Both the position numbers and the translations under genes were made by a program. A stretch of DNA of 3,964 bases from Escherichia coli. Its GTDB lineage: Bacteria; Pseudomonadota; Gammaproteobacteria; Enterobacterales; Enterobacteriaceae. The notes beneath the pieces were generated by a model that did no database searches, was not told where the DNA came from, and saw nothing but the letters and a program-made list of their open reading frames with translations. Shown here piece by piece: positions 1 to 3,964 of the stretch. The DNA lies in NCBI RefSeq assembly GCF_003334385.1, contig NZ_QOWN01000090.1. The stretch is one strand, 5' to 3'. Each line of letters starts with the position of its first letter. Position 1 is the first letter of the stretch.

Positions 1-314
<314 letters not shown>

Positions 315-318
315 CAAT

Positions 319-341
319 TAATACGACTCAGTATGGGGAGA
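319..341 (+). promoter_or_regulatory. T7-group phage RNA polymerase promoter-like element P1, with predicted +1 at G336.
   Basis: TAATACGACTCAGTATGGGGAGA matches the T7 consensus TAATACGACTCACTATAGGGAGA at 21/23. The differences are at -5 (C to G) and -1 (A to G). The -12 to -8 specificity block CGACT and the GGGAGA initiation region are intact. It starts 5 nt after the upstream stop codon. Confidence 0.7.
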
Positions 342-428
342 GGGCCTCTGACGAACCCACAGATAGTGTGGTCTCATGCCCTTAGTTGCCCATATCTATT
401 TACGAATCCACCTTAAAGTCAATAGAAA

Positions 429-451
429 CAATACGACTCGCTAATGGGAGA
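429..451 (+). promoter_or_regulatory. T7-group phage RNA polymerase promoter-like element P2, with predicted +1 at G446.
   Basis: CAATACGACTCGCTAATGGGAGA matches the T7 consensus at 19/23, with differences at -17, -6, -2 and -1. It shares AATACGACTC and GGGAGAG with P1. It has the same orientation as P1, and the two +1 positions are 110 bp apart. Confidence 0.6.
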
Positions 452-472
452 GCGGTGACAAAAAGTTTTCCC
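446..472 (+). other. Predicted 5' leader stem-loop of the P2 transcript, resembling the phi10 leader.
   Basis: GGGAGAG (446-452) can pair with TTTTCCC (466-472) to give 7 bp including two G-U pairs, with a 13-nt loop. The T7 phi10 leader, as I recall it, is GGGAGACCACAACGGTTTCCCTCTAGA. Here the sequence is GGGAGAGCGGTGACAAAAAGTTTTCCCTCTATGA. Confidence 0.4.
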
Positions 473-640
473 TCTATGACAACTAACTGTAACTTATCGC
501 ATCCTTTCAGGGGCGGGATGACCAATTACAGACACCAAGCGTTCTACTTAAAGTGAATGCTTCCTGTGTGCTCTGGGTCAGTCGATAAGTGAATAGCAAT
601 AGACATCATATTAACTATGGTCTCTGGTCTACAGGGGCTA

Positions 641-780
641 AACTTAAAGTTTACTTAAAGACCTTAAAGTTATATTACTTGTTTACACAAGATAATAATA
701 AAAACTTAAAGAATAACTTTAAGAGTACTTATGATTATCTATCATTTAATCTTGTCATAATTCACTTTTGTAATAACTAA
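641..780. other. Strongly AT-rich tract, a candidate DNA-unwinding or origin-like region.
   Basis: I counted 28 G/C in 140 nt, about 80% A+T. The tract lies downstream of the two phage-type promoters and overlaps the densest heptamer cluster. It has no credible coding potential. Confidence 0.4.
650..678 (+). promoter_or_regulatory. Weak candidate sigma70 promoter with -35 TTTACT, a 17-nt spacer and -10 TATTAC.
   Basis: TTTACTTAAAGACCTTAAAGTTATATTAC has the same layout as the T7 A1 early promoter as I recall it (TTGACTTAAAGTCTAACCTATAGGATACT). The -10 lacks the final conserved T, so its activity is doubtful. Confidence 0.2.
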
Positions 781-844
781 CGATGTCTCCACAAGACACC
801 GATCCTATCAATCTCAAAGACATCCACAATGTTTACCCTTTGTT

Positions 845-879
845 CTGCTGGTCCTCCTTCATTTGAGGACCTTGGGCAG
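845..879 (+). other. Imperfect hairpin with an internal loop in the 5' UTR of the Rha-like gene.
   Basis: GGTCCTC (850-856) pairs with GAGGACC (865-871) as a perfect 7-bp stem with an 8-nt loop. It is extended by CTGC (845-848) pairing with GCAG (876-879) across an asymmetric internal loop. It ends about 30 nt upstream of the SD at 910-915. Confidence 0.35.
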
Positions 880-924
880 GTCAGTGGGTTGTGGCTCAGG
901 GTGCAAACAAAGGAGTACAACGAT

Positions 925-1629
925 ATGGCTCAACAAGTAATTAGCTTTAATAATGAATTCTCAATGTCTTCCTACGAGTTTCTGACCACGATTATCAATC
1001 CAGCCCGTGAAGAAGCAGGGGAGAAACCTGTCCGAAATAATGCCTTTATAGAGCGTGTCCGTGATGAATTGGACGGTTGCCAAAATTTGGTAAGCGATAT
1101 GGTTACACCAGCCGGAGGTGGTACTCCTATGGAAAACGTCATCCTCAATGGCGATCAATTACTTCTGGTCGGTATGCGAGAGTCTAAAGCTGTGCGTCGT
1201 AAGGTTCTGGAGTACATTCGACGAATTGAGAAGGCTAAGCAGTTATTGGAAGACCAGAAGAAACGAGCAGCTATCCAGTCAGCTAACCGTCGTGGCGTAA
1301 CGTGGGGTGATTTCTGTAAGGCCAACGAGCTACCCGCACAGAAACTACTACTTGCGCTCAGGAAGCAGGGACGCCTATTACGCTGGCGCATGGATAATAC
1401 TGTCACGGTTCATCCGCATTTTGCGCAATACTTTCGGATCATCAAATATAATGATGCGAAGTTCAGCTCTACAGGTATCAACTTCAGGTTGAACACCAAG
1501 GGGGTGGAGTTCTTCTCACAACCCGACCGTGTGGCCCGCTTCCGGGAAATCCTTGTTGAGCAATACGGGTCTGATATTGACAAGCAACGTCTATTGCAGT
1601 CGAAAGCGCGGCAGGCTGTAGAGTTATGA
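925..1629 (+). CDS. Phage-type regulatory protein of 234 aa. The N-terminus is Rha/Bro-like and the C-terminus is KilA-C/ANT (antirepressor)-like.
   Basis: A consensus SD AAGGAG at 910-915 lies 9 nt before ATG 925. The ATG at 829 given in the ORF track has no RBS. The N-terminal part (SSYEFLTTIINP...VRNNAFIERVRDEL...DQLLLVGMRESKAVRRKVLEYI) and the C-terminal part (VTWGDFCKANELPAQKLLLALRKQGRLL...TKGVEFF) resemble phage Rha/antirepressor modules by eye. The family call has not been checked with an HMM search. Confidence 0.8.
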   Translation: MAQQVISFNNEFSMSSYEFLTTIINPAREEAGEKPVRNNAFIERVRDELDGCQNLVSDMVTPAGGGTPMENVILNGDQLLLVGMRESKAVRRKVLEYIRRIEKAKQLLEDQKKRAAIQSANRRGVTWGDFCKANELPAQKLLLALRKQGRLLRWRMDNTVTVHPHFAQYFRIIKYNDAKFSSTGINFRLNTKGVEFFSQPDRVARFREILVEQYGSDIDKQRLLQSKARQAVEL

Positions 1630-1739
1630 ATAAGAGTATCAAGCTTGGCCCTCGTACACCAGAAAGCCGCAAAGCGTTACACCTGATGACAGTCGATAGT
1701 GCTTCCATTGTGCCCGCTTTGGGTTTGCCCCCCTCTTGA
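1626..1739 (+). CDS. Possible translationally coupled small ORF of 37 aa (MNKSIKLGPRTPESRKALHLMTVDSASIVPALGLPPS). It may be a gene remnant.
   Basis: Its ATG (1626-1628) overlaps the upstream TGA (1627-1629) in an ATGA arrangement. I recognise no homology, and it is below the ORF-track size cut-off. Confidence 0.2.
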   Translation: MNKSIKLGPRTPESRKALHLMTVDSASIVPALGLPPS

Positions 1740-1830
1740 TGAACCCTGTCTACGTAAAGGCTGCTTTGTGCCTCATCATAGTTGTTGTGGGATTATCATC
1801 TAAAGATTCTCATGGTTGATATAGGTGTCG

Positions 1831-1868
1831 GCGATCAATTTCAAATTATCGATCGAGATAAACGATCG
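1831..1868. promoter_or_regulatory. Cluster of three GATC sites and two CGATCG palindromes. It is a candidate operator or Dam-sensitive site upstream of the 158-aa gene.
   Basis: GCGATC lies at 1831-1836, with CGATCG at 1850-1855 and 1863-1868. The GATC cores are at 1833, 1851 and 1864. The cluster lies 60-100 nt upstream of GTG 1930. Confidence 0.3.
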
Positions 1869-1929
1869 GTGTGATGGCTGCAATCACGTTATCCTTTGGG
1901 CACCCTTCTGAAATTTTGAGGATATAAAT

Positions 1930-2406
1930 GTGTTTGGGCTTTTTAAGAAAAAGACAAAAGCGGAAAGACGCTATGATGTGACACGCATTCAGTACGAATT
2001 GGTCGTGATGTCATCTGGACTGATAAGCAAACAAACTGTGATGTTCAATGCTATGATGGATAAGGAGCGTAGAGAGTTAGAGGGCTCTCCGTATTTATCT
2101 GCGGGGTACATTACTCCTTGGGTTATTGGGTATATCACTGGCATTTTGGATGCGGTTACTCAAACTGAGGCTAACAGGATGGCATTTACGTCGGAAATGC
2201 TTGGGCTTATTTTTTCAGTCGTTTTCGGTGATGATAAGTCTCATGACGCCATGGTAACTTATATAGCCTGTAACGAAGCCTCCTCACCAGACCATGAATT
2301 TCATGTTACGTACGAGCTCTATATGACTGGTCTTGCGAAAGCTTTTAATGAGGTATGTGAGAATAAACCTGTAATAGGGCTCATGAACTATTTAATGCGG
2401 GATTAA
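1930..2406 (+). CDS. Hypothetical protein of 158 aa with a GTG start and no family that I recognise.
   Basis: GAGGA at 1917-1921 lies 8 nt before GTG 1930. The frame is clean and open with protein-like composition (MFGLFKKKTKAERRYDV...). The ATG at 1928 is in another frame and terminates after 17 codons. Confidence 0.7.
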   Translation: MFGLFKKKTKAERRYDVTRIQYELVVMSSGLISKQTVMFNAMMDKERRELEGSPYLSAGYITPWVIGYITGILDAVTQTEANRMAFTSEMLGLIFSVVFGDDKSHDAMVTYIACNEASSPDHEFHVTYELYMTGLAKAFNEVCENKPVIGLMNYLMRD

Positions 2407-2865
2407 AATTTCCTACAAAAATCTGAGCGTCTATCTAATAGTTCATCCTCTCGCGTTGTCCCCGTAGCCCTCCTTGAGTTTGCCCTGAAGCGAGGGAAGC
2501 TCCCCCCTTCAAGTCGAAAGATTGGGAACCTTCCAGATGTTCTGGCCTTGGTTCTATTCCGTTTGTGGGAATATTACAGGTATCCGACCTTGACCAGAGA
2601 TCACTCAGTGTGTAACCATAACTGTAACCAAATGGATTCATTATATCTTTAAGAAACAAATGGTTATTGAGTGATTGTCTTCGATGCTTCGATTCCCTTC
2701 GCCCGCTCCAATTTATCTTCGCCGTAATACTTCCCCATTTTGTTGTAAATAAAAAGCGTTTACGCAATGCAATCCTTTTGTAACAACCCAGGTAAAACAC
2801 CTTATTTTCAAGTTGTTAAATAAGTGGTTATCTACGCTTTTAACAAACGATTGATGGAATATTTT

Positions 2866-3891
2866 ATGAAAGGGAAATCTGCATTAACTCTTCTGCTCGC
2901 TGGTATATTTTCGTGCGGCACATGCCAGGCGACAGGGGCAGAAGTGACGAGTGAATCTGTATTTAACATTCTTAATTCCACGGGGGCAGCAACAGATAAA
3001 AGTTATTTATCGTTAAATCCAGATAAGTATCCTAATTATCGTCTTCTGATTCACTCAGCCAAATTACAAAATGAAATAAAGAGCCACTATACCAAAGACG
3101 AAATTCAAGGATTGCTAACATTAACAGAAAACACACGAAAGTTAACGTTGACGGAGAAACCCTGGGGAACGTTTATTCTTGCTTCTACTTTCGAAGATGA
3201 CAAAACAGCGGCAGAAACCCACTATGATGCTGTCTGGTTGAGGGATAGTTTATGGGGCTATATGGCATTAGTATCAGATCAGGGAAATAGTGTAGCCGCA
3301 AAAAAGGTTCTGCTCACCCTGTGGGATTATATGTCTACGCCCGACCAGATTAAGCGGATGCAGGACGTCATTAGCAACCCAAAACGACTGGATGGAATTC
3401 CCGTGCAAATGAATGCTGTGCATATCCGATTTGACAGCAACTCCCCCGTGATGGCAGATGTGCAGGAAGAAGGCAAGCCGCAGCTGTGGAACCATAAACA
3501 AAATGATGCTTTAGGTCTTTACCTTGATCTCCTTATACAAGCAATCAACACTGGTACTATTAACGCTGAAGATTGGCAAAAAGGTGACCGATTAAAGTCG
3601 GTTGCGCTGCTGATTGCTTATCTGGATAAAGCCAATTTCTATGTTATGGAAGATTCCTGAGCATGGGAAGAAGATGCCCGATTAAACACATCTTCCGTTG
3701 CACTGGTGACCTCTGGACTGGAACGTTTGTCAAACCTACTCTCGAAGAAAGACTCTGTTTTTGTCTCTGATTTACTACGCGAAGCTAAAGTCAATGAACT
3801 GGATGAAACTCTTTCAACAACGAGGTTGAACCACCTCATAGATAAAGGTTATGAAAGAATAACGTTACAGCTTGATTTAGGGGGAGAATCC
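2866..3891 (+). pseudogene. Exported GH15-family (glucoamylase / phosphorylase-kinase-like) glycoside hydrolase. It is inactivated by an in-frame TGA at 3658-3660 and 3'-truncated by IS186.
   Basis: It has an N-terminal signal peptide MKGKSALTLLLAGIFSCGTCQA. GH15-like motifs are YDAVWLRDS, NHKQNDALGLYLD and EDS*AWEED. The last corresponds to the conserved G-x-WEE catalytic-acid region, with TGA where GGA (Gly) would be expected. ORFs 2824-3660 and 3706-3903 are in the same frame. The reading frame runs straight into the IS186 terminus at 3892. Confidence 0.8.
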
Positions 3892-3964
3892 CATAAGCGC
3901 TAACTTAAGGGTTGTGGTATTACGCCTGATATGATTTAACGTGCCGATGAATTACTCTCACGAT
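3892..3964 (+). mobile_element. IS186 (IS4 family) terminal segment. It is the same end as at 1-75 and the element continues rightward off the window.
   Basis: CATAAGCGCTAACTTAAGGGTTG at 3892-3914 is the IS186 terminal IR as I recall it. The segment is the exact reverse complement of 1-75. The interior flank GGGGG-AGAAT-CC fits the IS186 target preference. Confidence 0.85.
3947..3964 (+). CDS. insL: IS186 transposase InsL, first six codons (MNYSHD). The CDS runs off the right edge.
   Basis: ATG AAT TAC TCT CAC GAT lies at 3947-3964 and matches the InsL N-terminus as I recall it. Confidence 0.7.

Follow-up and report, generated by a model that had tools for sequence, protein, structure and literature searches.

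Tandem T7-like promoter islands of enterobacteria are the subject of a 2006 paper by Chen & Schneider (Nucleic Acids Res 34:1133). These islands are said to carry T7-group promoters in tandem, two or three in the space of a few hundred bases, with a tyrosine-recombinase integrase upstream and a few phage-related non-structural genes downstream, and reportedly lack a cognate RNA polymerase gene, end in direct repeats of 17–24 bases, and range from 4 to 13 kb in size. A satellite lifestyle was reportedly proposed for them in the same work; the papers searched held neither follow-up work on these islands nor an experimental test of the T7-dependent satellite idea. T7 is a strictly lytic phage, and we know of no T7 satellite that has been demonstrated experimentally.

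Two further systems are relevant. The anti-T7 defence gene PD-T7-4 has been renamed RAZR (PMC13017515), and is described as a protein acting alone from its own promoter, with no mention of downstream T7 promoters, or of an island or satellite context, in either of the two publications (PMC9519451; PMC13017515). In T7 itself, replication starts at phi1.1A/1.1B, secondary origins include phiOR and phi6.5, and a T7 RNA polymerase promoter is required by every origin (PMC8373140).

Anatomy of the island

The window analysed here is a 3,964-nucleotide stretch of an Escherichia coli contig (NZ_QOWN01000090.1), for which an original prediction, made from its letters, had likened a heptamer array and an AT-rich tract to parts of the T7 genome. 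Unforeseen in that prediction was the setting, which is not ordinary host DNA but a mobile element, a 4.8-kb (4,791 bp) integrative island at the tRNA-Gly gene glyU. The island runs from an integrase through RAZR/PD-T7-4, two T7-type promoters, a structured leader, the AT-rich heptamer tract, an Ant-like gene and a 158-aa gene to attR. The integrase lies outside the window; in E. coli H7 (NZ_CP010171), which is 100% identical, a 535-aa Phage_integrase protein is encoded between glyU and RAZR. Genes and end structures within the window are as follows.

75–314, + strand: 3' part of the RAZR/PD-T7-4 gene (DUF4145 HEPN RNase, anti-T7 defence), stop codon 312–314
845–919, + strand: conserved module before the first downstream gene, with hairpin GGTCCTC...GAGGACC (850–871) and AAGGAG ribosome-binding site (911–916)
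925–1629, + strand: first downstream gene, Ant/anti-repressor-like, 234 aa
1930–2406, + strand: second downstream gene, 158 aa, of no known family
2610–2653, unstranded: attR arm, with paired TGTAACC repeats (2610–2633) and an inverted CTTAAAG (2647–2653) 41 bp before the attR core
2688–2710, + strand: attR core, a 23-bp direct repeat of the glyU 3' end (TTCGATTCCCTTCGCCCGCTCCA), forming the right end of the island

Directly before the promoters lies a gene closely homologous to PD-T7-4 (PADLOC PD-T7-4, E = 2.9e-100; Pfam DUF4145); the tract is not part of RAZR as defined. In the window this gene is cut at about 75–87 by an IS end, and its region is 100% identical to that of E. coli H7, where the CDS is intact. 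The first downstream gene belongs to a phage-regulator family in every island, its position being taken by KilA-N-like or Rha-like genes in sister islands, and the 158-aa gene is 80–83% identical in three of them. The module at 845–919 shows 78–80% identity in L009, L012, L017 and L019–L023, and occurs too in islands from other genera in which the leader core is missing.

This anatomy fits the features reported for the tandem T7-like promoter islands: the locus lies beside a tRNA gene, a tyrosine integrase stands upstream (in H7), two tandem T7-type promoters are separated by 110 nt, the end repeat is 23 bp, the length is 4,791 bp, and the gene content is confined to the integrase, RAZR, the Ant-like gene and the 158-aa gene, with no cognate RNA polymerase gene. 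Many Enterobacterales have related islands, whose promoters belong to different T7-group types. The island also resembles phage satellites (P4, PICI, PLE) in being small and integrase-bearing, with defence genes and with cis sites apparently meant for a specific helper phage. It differs from them in that no Rep, primase or initiator family was found among its proteins and no capsid-remodelling or packaging gene in the island, and in that its helper would be a strictly lytic T7-group phage, linked to it through the phage RNA polymerase. An iteron-type origin is likewise not supported, as repeats are there but the search of the island proteins yielded no initiator family.

Promoters and the structured leader

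The original prediction placed phage-type promoters ahead of the AT-rich tract, and two T7-type sites are indeed located there, followed by a conserved leader.

319–341, + strand: T7-type promoter P1 (TAATACGACTCAGTATGGGGAGA), predicted +1 at 336, 2 mismatches to TAATACGACTCACTATAGGGAGA
429–451, + strand: T7-type promoter P2 (CAATACGACTCGCTAATGGGAGA), predicted +1 at 446, 4 mismatches
489–592, + strand: conserved structured leader core, with an invariant stretch of ~40 nt (CGCATCCTTTCAGGGGCGGGATGACCA), closing helix ACUUAUCG/CGAUAAGU and apical hairpin at 534–559
575–629, + strand: T7-primase-type pentamers, GGGTC at 575 and TGGTC at 618 and 625, on the strand that would be displaced by rightward transcription

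P1 departs from the consensus at -5 (C>G, as in T7 phi1.3) and -1 (A>G), and in three sister islands (L005, L006 and L008) the site at this position matches the T7 consensus perfectly (23/23). The equivalents of P2 in sister islands have 1–2 mismatches and sister-island promoters overall 0–2, and the mismatches in the degenerate promoters of the window copy include -1 and -2. Because both promoters are degenerate and RAZR is cut by the IS, this copy of the island may be decaying. Elsewhere in the family, Klebsiella-type islands combine T7-type sites with AATTAGGGCA-type sites, which we take to be K11-type promoters, and the promoters of islands in other genera match those of other T7-group clades at 29/30 and 27/27 positions. 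No forward sigma-70 promoter is predicted in 315–924.

The leader core combines sequence and structural conservation. RNAalifold, run on 7 and 13 homologues, gave a compensatory UA>CG change together with wobble-compatible ones, leaving every pair of the three main helices intact, and the minimum free energy of the core has a z-score of -3.3. A search of the window against Rfam 15 produced no meaningful match (its single hit has E = 9.7), and no counterpart of the core was found in T7, against which it scores at noise level. The exact core occurs in three contigs only of the viral collection. Three primase-type pentamers within 80 nt make this the densest such stretch, and GGGTC and TGGTC are recognition sequences of the T7 gene 4 primase; they are nevertheless weak evidence, because GGGTC also forms part of an RNA helix. 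Short ORFs in this part of the window (386–556, 589–780 and a 12-aa ORF ending in the heptamer at 547) were rejected as genes, since 1-nt and 4-nt indels break them in relatives.

The heptamers and the AT-rich tract

Downstream of the leader lies the region with which the original prediction was concerned.

412–418, + strand: CTTAAAG between P1 and P2, variable among island variants and CTAGAAG in two
640–677, + strand: segment aligning to T7 5927–5966, the start of the AT-rich region after phi1.1B
641–780, + strand: AT-rich tract, with CTTAAAG at 643, 654, 663 and 705 and inverted at 717–723, 80–82% A+T over 640–760

The predicted motif counts held. There are seven copies of CTTAAAG within 412–723, six direct (+ strand starts 412, 547, 643, 654, 663 and 705) and one inverted at 717–723; four lie within 643–711, the starts at 643, 654 and 663 being 11 and 9 nt apart. 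With two further inverted copies, at 188–194 and 2647–2653, the window holds 9, against 0.65 +/- 0.77 expected, and at least 9 were seen in 0 of 200 dinucleotide shuffles. The predicted A+T content of about 80% for 641–780 also agrees with measurement (GC 18–20% in 60-nt windows over 640–760). Across 13 related islands with defined ends, CTTAAAG is about 15-fold denser than in their chromosomal flanks (1.33/kb versus 0.09/kb; 102 versus 10 copies), and is therefore not a general trait of host DNA. The seven copies are nonetheless a heterogeneous set, and do not all belong together. The copy at 547–553, for instance, sits in the loop of the apical hairpin of the leader, which is conserved in relatives while its CTTAAAG motif is lost. 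Tract 641–780 has no coding capacity in any island variant, as its indels are not multiples of three and no ORF is conserved.

CTTAAAG also recurs at the island ends, where it occupies fixed att-arm positions across genera, +9 and +48 after the tRNA end and 36–41 bp before attR. The attR-arm sites are found in Klebsiella, Pectobacterium, Citrobacter, Buttiauxella and Enterobacter islands, and in Proteus both core-flanking sites have lost one base together, giving CTTAAG. Such conserved positions would fit arm-type or accessory sites of the integrase, for the att-proximal copies and not for the tract. As the heptamers are conserved in both att arms, and the arms are unlike T7 (no resemblance to the T7 ends above noise level), a second role in protein binding is indicated.

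Protein binding might be extended to the whole set, with CTTAAAG recognised by the integrase (through its N-terminal DUF6538 domain), by an excision factor or by a DNA-bending protein of the host. The array inside the island would then act as a regulatory or architectural site, and the likeness to T7 would be secondary. The fixed att-arm positions in genera with differing promoter types, the joint loss in Proteus, the enrichment over the flanks and the 11–12-nt spacing of the two best-conserved tract copies all speak for this. Nevertheless, we regard it as improbable: the paired TGTAACC repeats are more typical arm-site candidates, the attR-side heptamer adjoins an IHF-like AAACAAATGGTTA and may be the mere AT-rich flank of that consensus, the number and position of the internal copies change from one variant to the next, no constant island protein other than the integrase is an obvious sequence-specific regulator, and the significant phage homologue of the internal tract, described below, would be left unexplained. 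Two specific binders were considered and rejected. TTAAAGNCA, which we take to be the P2 Cox box consensus, is fitted in its last two bases by 2 of 10 sites, the invariant 5' C falls outside the box, and there is no Cox-like gene; the Ant, KilA-N and Rha proteins belong to families that differ between islands sharing the heptamer.

The original prediction also likened the tract to the T7 replication-origin region, and this resemblance was borne out. By gapped local alignment on both strands, the best match of the tract in the whole T7 genome is T7 5927–5966, directly after phi1.1B, with a score of 34 against 25.9 +/- 2.4 in shuffles (z = 3.3; 1 of 100 shuffles scores as high). For four of five island variants the top genome-wide match is T7 5601–6200 (z = 3.3 in the window; 10.5, 7.0 and 4.6 in its relatives), a Klebsiella-type tract aligns over 65 nt with the phi1.1B-to-gene-1.1 region of the T7-like phage 64795_ec1, and in nine loci from five genera the segment most like the T7 origin tract occupies an equivalent place, on the + strand. 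A strict promoter scan located a site upstream of this segment in eight of the loci, at a distance of 200–280 nt. Taken by itself the T7 similarity of the window is marginal, and the case for homology rests on its better-preserved relatives; on these alignments, the tract at ~640–745 is homologous, though diverged, to the AT-rich region that follows phi1.1B in the T7 primary origin.

The two regions agree in that an AT-rich tract comes after T7-type promoters in tandem, with CTTAAG-type units and spacers in like order and the tract running in the direction of the promoters. They differ in that the tract of the window begins ~195 nt after the +1 of P2, the structured leader intervening, whereas the AT-rich region of T7 begins within a few bases of phi1.1B; in addition, the island tract is not followed by gene 1.1, and the window copy is strongly diverged. 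Within T7, the 80 nt downstream of the promoter are richest in A+T (71–76%), and CTT(A/T)AAG units densest, at phiOL, phi1.1B and phi6.5. The island's tandem pair ACTTAAAG-N-TTACTTAAAGA is also carried by about 50 contigs of T7-group phages, where it lies in the leader of a promoter that gene order identifies as phi6.5. P1 and P2, though both degenerate, would supply the promoter that T7 origins need.

The homology is visible only by gapped local alignment and with the better-preserved relatives: searches of 50,697 phage records by megablast and sensitive blastn, with the window and with 300–930 as queries, gave promoter-sized matches only, of at most about 43 nt. Other parts compared with T7 (the conserved core, the 780–924 module, the inter-promoter region and the attP arms) score at noise level.

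The likeness to the T7 left-end repeats, with which the original prediction began, fared less well. The T7 stretch quoted there exists (T7 264–302) and the common 11-mer CTTAAAGTTTA is real (window 643–653, T7 267–277), but the 11-mer is at chance level alone (E = 4.8) and T7 263–290 is only the second-best match of the tract, aligning at 20/23 to 25/28 positions with scores of 30–34, at the upper edge of the shuffle range and not significant alone. The tract shares with the T7 terminal short-repeat arrays direct-orientation heptamers of the C(C/T/A)TAAAG type. However, the T7 arrays, at both genome ends, are of CCTAAAG (22 copies on the T7 + strand), a variant that the window lacks on its + strand, whereas the tract has CTTAAAG only, in 5 copies versus more than 20 in T7. 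The island has no terminal repeat, and no comparison with T7 revealed a terminal-repeat-like sequence or a concatemer-junction signal.

It follows from these results that a packaging mimic, in which the heptamers copy the T7 end arrays and the island is cut and packaged in T7 capsids as a satellite, is highly improbable, the more so with attP arms at noise level and no packaging-related protein in the island. In its favour stand the second-best match just described, the satellite lifestyle that Chen & Schneider reportedly proposed, and P1 with its upstream flank, of which the best match is phiOR (28 nt at 93%; 43 nt at 84%).

A stronger alternative is that the region is an expression leader only, comprising a captured phage promoter and a gene 1.1-type leader for phage-polymerase-driven expression of the Ant-like and 158-aa genes, in which the tract is a relic of that leader, or at most an unstructured A/U-rich spacer or an H-NS-silenced stretch, and plays no part in replication. 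T7-group phages have the same units in mRNA leaders, where they merge into ribosome-binding sites (ACTTTAAGGAG before genes 9, 10 and 17; ACTTAAAGAGGAG before gene 6.5 in K11-like phages). The region has no host-type promoter, the first downstream gene is always of a phage-regulator family, and conservation is lower in the tract, which has many indels, than in the core beside it. Moreover, an origin-like tract is undetected in islands with Citrobacter-type, Proteus-type and Morganella-type promoters, and is therefore not essential to the island family.

Against an expression leader stands the conservation of the first two tract units, which show little or no variation among E. coli, Rouxiella and Klebsiella-type islands, in a place where the islands have no start codon or Shine-Dalgarno sequence after the tract, and where ~150 nt and the separate conserved module intervene. 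The phage leader function has thus not been retained, and as no ORF follows the tract in any variant, a ribosome-binding site does not explain its retention. In addition, the best T7 match is the region behind phi1.1B, and not the leaders of the non-origin promoters phi9, phi10 and phi17. On balance we consider the expression leader unlikely, while giving it serious weight.

Proposed function and significance

Most likely, by inference, the tract is a cis element for a T7-group RNA polymerase, and possibly for the phage replisome. Since it copies, in diverged form, the AT-rich part of the T7 main origin, a T7-like phage may transcribe, and perhaps copy, the island. In its fuller form, this reading takes the tract as an origin-type homologue in the control region of the island, through which the phage polymerase would drive both transcription and replication of the island; we favour it tentatively, at slightly under an even chance. 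The downstream module, having no recognisable host promoter, would be silent until infection by a T7-group phage, whereupon the phage RNA polymerase would fire at the island promoters and read on across leader and tract into the genes beyond. By analogy with T7 origins, which pair a phage promoter with an AT-rich region, the transcript in the easily melted tract could then pass to the phage DNA polymerase and helicase-primase, and the island might be replicated at the expense of the phage, replication being the most conjectural of these steps. The CTTAAAG units would accordingly be inherited features of an origin-type AT-rich region, rather than classical iterons for an island-encoded initiator.

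A bolder version, which we think quite unlikely, treats the island as a lytic-phage-dependent replicon, a minimal satellite or defence element without replication genes of its own that would be amplified, together with RAZR and the Ant-like genes, by the polymerase and replisome of the infecting phage, the structured RNA serving as primer or regulator, loosely like ColE1 RNA II. Of the ingredients of such a replicon, the islands hold a conserved structured RNA, the copy of the T7 primary-origin AT region and promoters that suit several T7-group RNA polymerases.

The idea of a T7-dependent satellite, which dates from 2006, is made directly testable by RAZR, by the clade-matched promoters and by the origin-region homologue. 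The islands carry, in RAZR, a validated anti-T7 abortive-infection gene, and many of them have, at a constant position downstream of the promoters, a homologue of the T7 primary-origin AT region. If the tract does not work as an origin, the locus remains a natural example of host genes under phage-polymerase control; if it does, a defence island would be using the transcription and replication machinery of its invader as both sensor and amplifier.

The RAZR-carrying island and its T7-type promoters

E. coli strain H7 has a chromosomal stretch 100% identical to positions 75-3892 of the window. In it, tRNA-Gly glyU is followed in turn by a tyrosine integrase of 535 aa, a DUF4145 protein of 209 aa, 610 bp of intergenic DNA (window 315-924), genes encoding proteins of 234 and 158 aa, ygeQ and the ETT2 secretion cluster. 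As the 3' end of glyU is directly repeated over 23 bp at window 2688-2710, the anatomy is that of a 4.8-kb integrative island, with ygeQ lying outside. The DUF4145 protein is PD-T7-4 (PADLOC E = 2.9e-100), renamed RAZR (PMC13017515), an HEPN RNase that protects by abortive infection from T3, T7 and other phages; its triggers are the portal proteins of T3, T7 and SECphi18 (PMC13017515). The control region is in every case followed first by a gene for an Ant, KilA-N or Rha-type phage regulator, these being of mutually unrelated subfamilies, and the second, 158-aa gene is conserved at 80-83%, its product having no family match in Pfam, PHROGs, NCBIfam or PADLOC.

Features of the window and the basis of their assignment
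75-314 (locus L001:7611-8240): RAZR/PD-T7-4 gene, flanked by the integrase gene and the tandem T7 promoters
319-341: promoter P1, 2 mismatches to the 23-nt T7 consensus, one of which, -5 G, also occurs in T7 phi1.3
429-451: promoter P2, 4 mismatches to the T7 consensus
About 452-640: core, from alignment of diverged variants
489-592: structured non-coding element, with invariant centre CGCATCCTTTCAGGGGCGGGATGACCA
641-780: AT/heptamer tract, from alignment of diverged variants
845-919: pre-gene module, directly upstream of the first downstream gene
925-1629: first downstream gene; equivalents at L002:8853-9344, L008:5715-6272 and L009:4884-5375 in related loci

The two ends of the window (1-87 and 3880-3964) are inverted copies of one IS terminus (85 nt, 95% complementary), and strain TOE17 has an annotated IS421 (IS4-like) at the matching place. 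In the window's source the left copy interrupts RAZR at about 75-87, H7 having the same DNA without the IS, and the window may be an entire short-read contig bounded by IS repeats. Beyond the island, the frame of ygeQ (glycoside hydrolase family 15; window 2867-3903) is broken by the stop codon 3658-3660 and resumes thereafter; the gene is intact, at 536 aa, in other strains (GF31).

The phage-type promoters originally predicted ahead of the tract are P1 and P2, and their identity is established. In other E. coli, sister islands inserted at the same site (L005, L006, L008 and L009) have perfect 23/23 T7 promoters, and one such type adds AATTAGGGCACACTATAGGGAGA-type and AATTAGGTAG-type promoters to a T7-type one. 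An integrase-anchored scan recovered 20 related loci, from Rouxiella, Lonsdalea, Klebsiella, Pectobacterium, Citrobacter, Buttiauxella, Shimwellia, Enterobacter, Proteus, Edaphovirga, Morganella and others; in nearly all of them T7-group promoter-like sites directly follow a RAZR-like gene, about 2250-2350 nt after the integrase start (L010-L028). The island promoters vary with host genus in their -8 to -12 specificity region and match those of different T7-group clades; the Citrobacter-type site matches Kayfunavirus-type phage promoters at 29/30 positions (six places per phage genome), and the Proteus-type site is identical over 27/27 to ICP3/N4-type vibriophage promoters (14 places per genome). 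Two islands, from Klebsiella pneumoniae ATCC 13883 and E. coli ESY002, hold four tandem promoter-like sites (L009:3793-4370 and L012:10260-10836) of three specificities, AATTAGGGCA twice and TAATACGACT and AATTAGGTAG once each, the AATTAGGTAG type being the promoter of many 40-41-kb phage contigs (e.g. L039 and L041).

Such islands were reportedly described by Chen & Schneider in 2006 as 4-13 kb long, with an upstream integrase, two or three tandem promoters and 17-24-bp direct repeats, and a satellite lifestyle relying on a T7-like RNA polymerase is said to have been proposed there. As the RAZR paper (PMC13017515) mentions neither islands, satellites, downstream T7 promoters nor the 2006 island paper, the two literatures seem unconnected.

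CTTAAAG heptamers in the tract and at the att sites

On the + strand of the window CTTAAAG starts at 412, 547, 643, 654, 663 and 705, with an inverted copy at 717-723, precisely the six direct and one inverted copies first counted; further inverted copies at 188 and 2647 give 9 in 3,964 bases versus 0.65 expected, a total reached in 0 of 200 shuffles. G+C is 18-20% across 640-760, in agreement with the predicted A+T content of about 80%. The heptamer is a feature of the islands rather than equally frequent in flanking host DNA: 48 of 52 copies in six E. coli loci lie inside islands, and density across 13 islands with defined ends is 1.33/kb versus 0.09/kb in the flanks. The copy at 412 is variable among variants.

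Further conserved copies are found 9 and 48 nt beyond the tRNA end and 36-41 nt ahead of attR, positions kept in Escherichia, Klebsiella, Pectobacterium, Citrobacter, Buttiauxella and Enterobacter regardless of promoter type; in Proteus both core-flanking sites read CTTAAG, a joint one-base loss. The att arms additionally hold paired TGTAACC repeats and an IHF-like AAACAAATGGTTA, and the attP arms have no similarity to T7. Given these fixed positions, the arm repeats and the absence of T7 likeness, the att-side copies look like putative recombination-related protein sites, a population apart from the tract. The tract, which shares the heptamer, could itself be a set of candidate binding sites for the island integrase or an accessory factor, a reading that we consider improbable.

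The attP architecture conserved across genera (window 2610-2710; L001:5869-6002) comprises the paired TGTAACC repeats, present in each arm, two ATACTTTAAGAA-type sites that flank the core in inverted orientation, a GGCTT(T/A)AAGCC palindrome and the IHF-like AAACAAATGGTTA. An inverted copy (83% complementary) of the attR-arm TGTAACC pair at 2610-2633 occurs at 1085-1108 inside the Ant-like gene, and may be due to chance.

The AT-rich tract and the T7 primary origin

In T7 the primary origin includes the AT-rich stretch that follows phi1.1B, and phiOL serves as a secondary one, as known from work of the Richardson laboratory. Among T7 promoters, the most AT-rich downstream 80 nt follow phiOL (76%), phi1.1B (74%) and phi6.5 (71%), and all three downstream regions carry CTT(A/T)AAG units; class II promoters except phi1.1B have none, and phi9, phi10 and phi17 have one each, which merges with the ribosome-binding site. 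T7 replication begins at phi1.1A/phi1.1B, phiOR and phi6.5 are among the secondary origins able to take over, and every T7 origin needs a T7-RNAP promoter (PMC8373140).

Blastn of the window region against phage and T7 sequences retrieved promoters only, and the 11-mer common to window and T7 is a chance-level match (E = 4.8). Gapped local alignment to the entire T7 genome, both strands included, places window 635-745 best at 5927-5966, directly following phi1.1B (window AAACTTAAAGTTT-ACTTAAAGA-CCTTAA-AGTTATATTA; T7 AACCTTAAGGTTTAACTTTAAGACCCTTAAGTGTTA-ATTA), with a score of 34 versus 25.9 +/- 2.4 for dinucleotide shuffles, reached by 1 of 100. The homologous tracts of better-preserved islands match the same 600-bp T7 segment considerably better, with z = 10.5 (Klebsiella-type), 7.0 (Rouxiella) and 4.6 (Pectobacterium), scores each reached by 0 of 100 shuffles; a fifth variant tested, RIT691, has its top T7 match elsewhere. 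Blastn of the Klebsiella-type region independently selects the stretch that separates the RNA polymerase gene from the next gene in T7-like phage 64795_ec1, where a 65-nt alignment is possible.

When whole 8-20-kb loci were searched, the best match to the T7 origin tract fell at the same relative place in nine loci of five genera: on the + strand, 870-1045 nt past the integrase gene, and 200-280 nt downstream of the promoter site in the eight with an upstream site by strict promoter scan. These comparisons demonstrate both the homology of the tract and its fixed position. Islands with Citrobacter-type promoters gave noise-level T7-origin matches only, and those of Proteus, Edaphovirga and Morganella none.

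The original prediction had likened the tract to the T7 left-end repeats as well as the origin, and the T7 sequence it gave is correct (T7 264-302). The origin resemblance holds; the left-end stretch (263-290) is the second-best match, with scores of 30 and 34, and the T7 terminal arrays consist of CCTAAAG (22 copies on the T7 + strand), which is absent from the window + strand. It is thus very improbable that the tract is a packaging mimic. Within T7 (L030), left-end CTATCTTAAAGTTTAAACATAAAGACCA (263-290) resembles primary-origin AACCTTAAGGTTTAACTTTAAGACCC (5930-5955), so the island tract resembles both.

About 50 contigs (40-41 kb) of T7-group phages also contain the island tandem pair ACTTAAAG-N-TTACTTAAAGA, about 20 nt downstream from a promoter situated between exonuclease gene 6 and an 81-aa gene, ahead of the portal gene; gene order identifies this promoter as phi6.5 and the leader as that of gene 6.5. 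We tentatively read the tract as a replication origin for T7-group phage machinery, at somewhat less than an even chance. Against this stand the 195-nt gap from promoter to tract, the decay of this copy, and several island lineages without a tract. The main rival, that the tract is a mere relic or spacer of a captured phage leader serving expression, is rather unlikely.

The structured core and the downstream module

Alignment of diverged variants resolves the intergenic region into separate modules: promoters, core, AT/heptamer tract and pre-gene module. The core centre is invariant even in Morganella and Edaphovirga, where flanks cannot be aligned, and the element at 489-592 is found in Escherichia, Klebsiella, Rouxiella, Edaphovirga and Morganella islands and 25 metagenome contigs, with no match in Rfam and no counterpart in T7. 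Its RNA folding is unusually stable (z = -3.3), and across 13 distinct homologues the three main helices contain no broken pair, all changes being compensatory or wobble-compatible (e.g. ACUUAUCG/CGAUAAGU to ACUCAUCG/CGAUGAGU), with compensatory changes in two helices. CTTAAAG at 547 sits within the loop of the apical hairpin; since the Klebsiella type retains this stem through several double changes and has lost the heptamer, the 547 copy is not part of a DNA repeat array. The pre-gene module contains a hairpin (GGTCCTC...GAGGACC), and is retained at 78-80% identity in other-genus islands without the core and origin-like tract.

No ORF follows the tract, and no forward host promoter is predicted in the intergenic region. 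The downstream module would be silent until a T7-group RNA polymerase appears, which would then transcribe the leader and the tract as well as the genes for the Ant-like and 158-aa proteins. If the tract is an origin, the transcript within it could prime phage DNA polymerase, as at T7 origins, and the island would be amplified.

Knowledge of the island family dates from 2006, and that of RAZR from 2022/2026. Three features appear undescribed in the literature consulted, and may have been partly anticipated by Chen & Schneider in 2006: that the islands carry RAZR, that a homologue of the AT-rich region of the T7 primary origin holds a fixed place in many of them, and that promoters and tract are separated by a conserved structured element.
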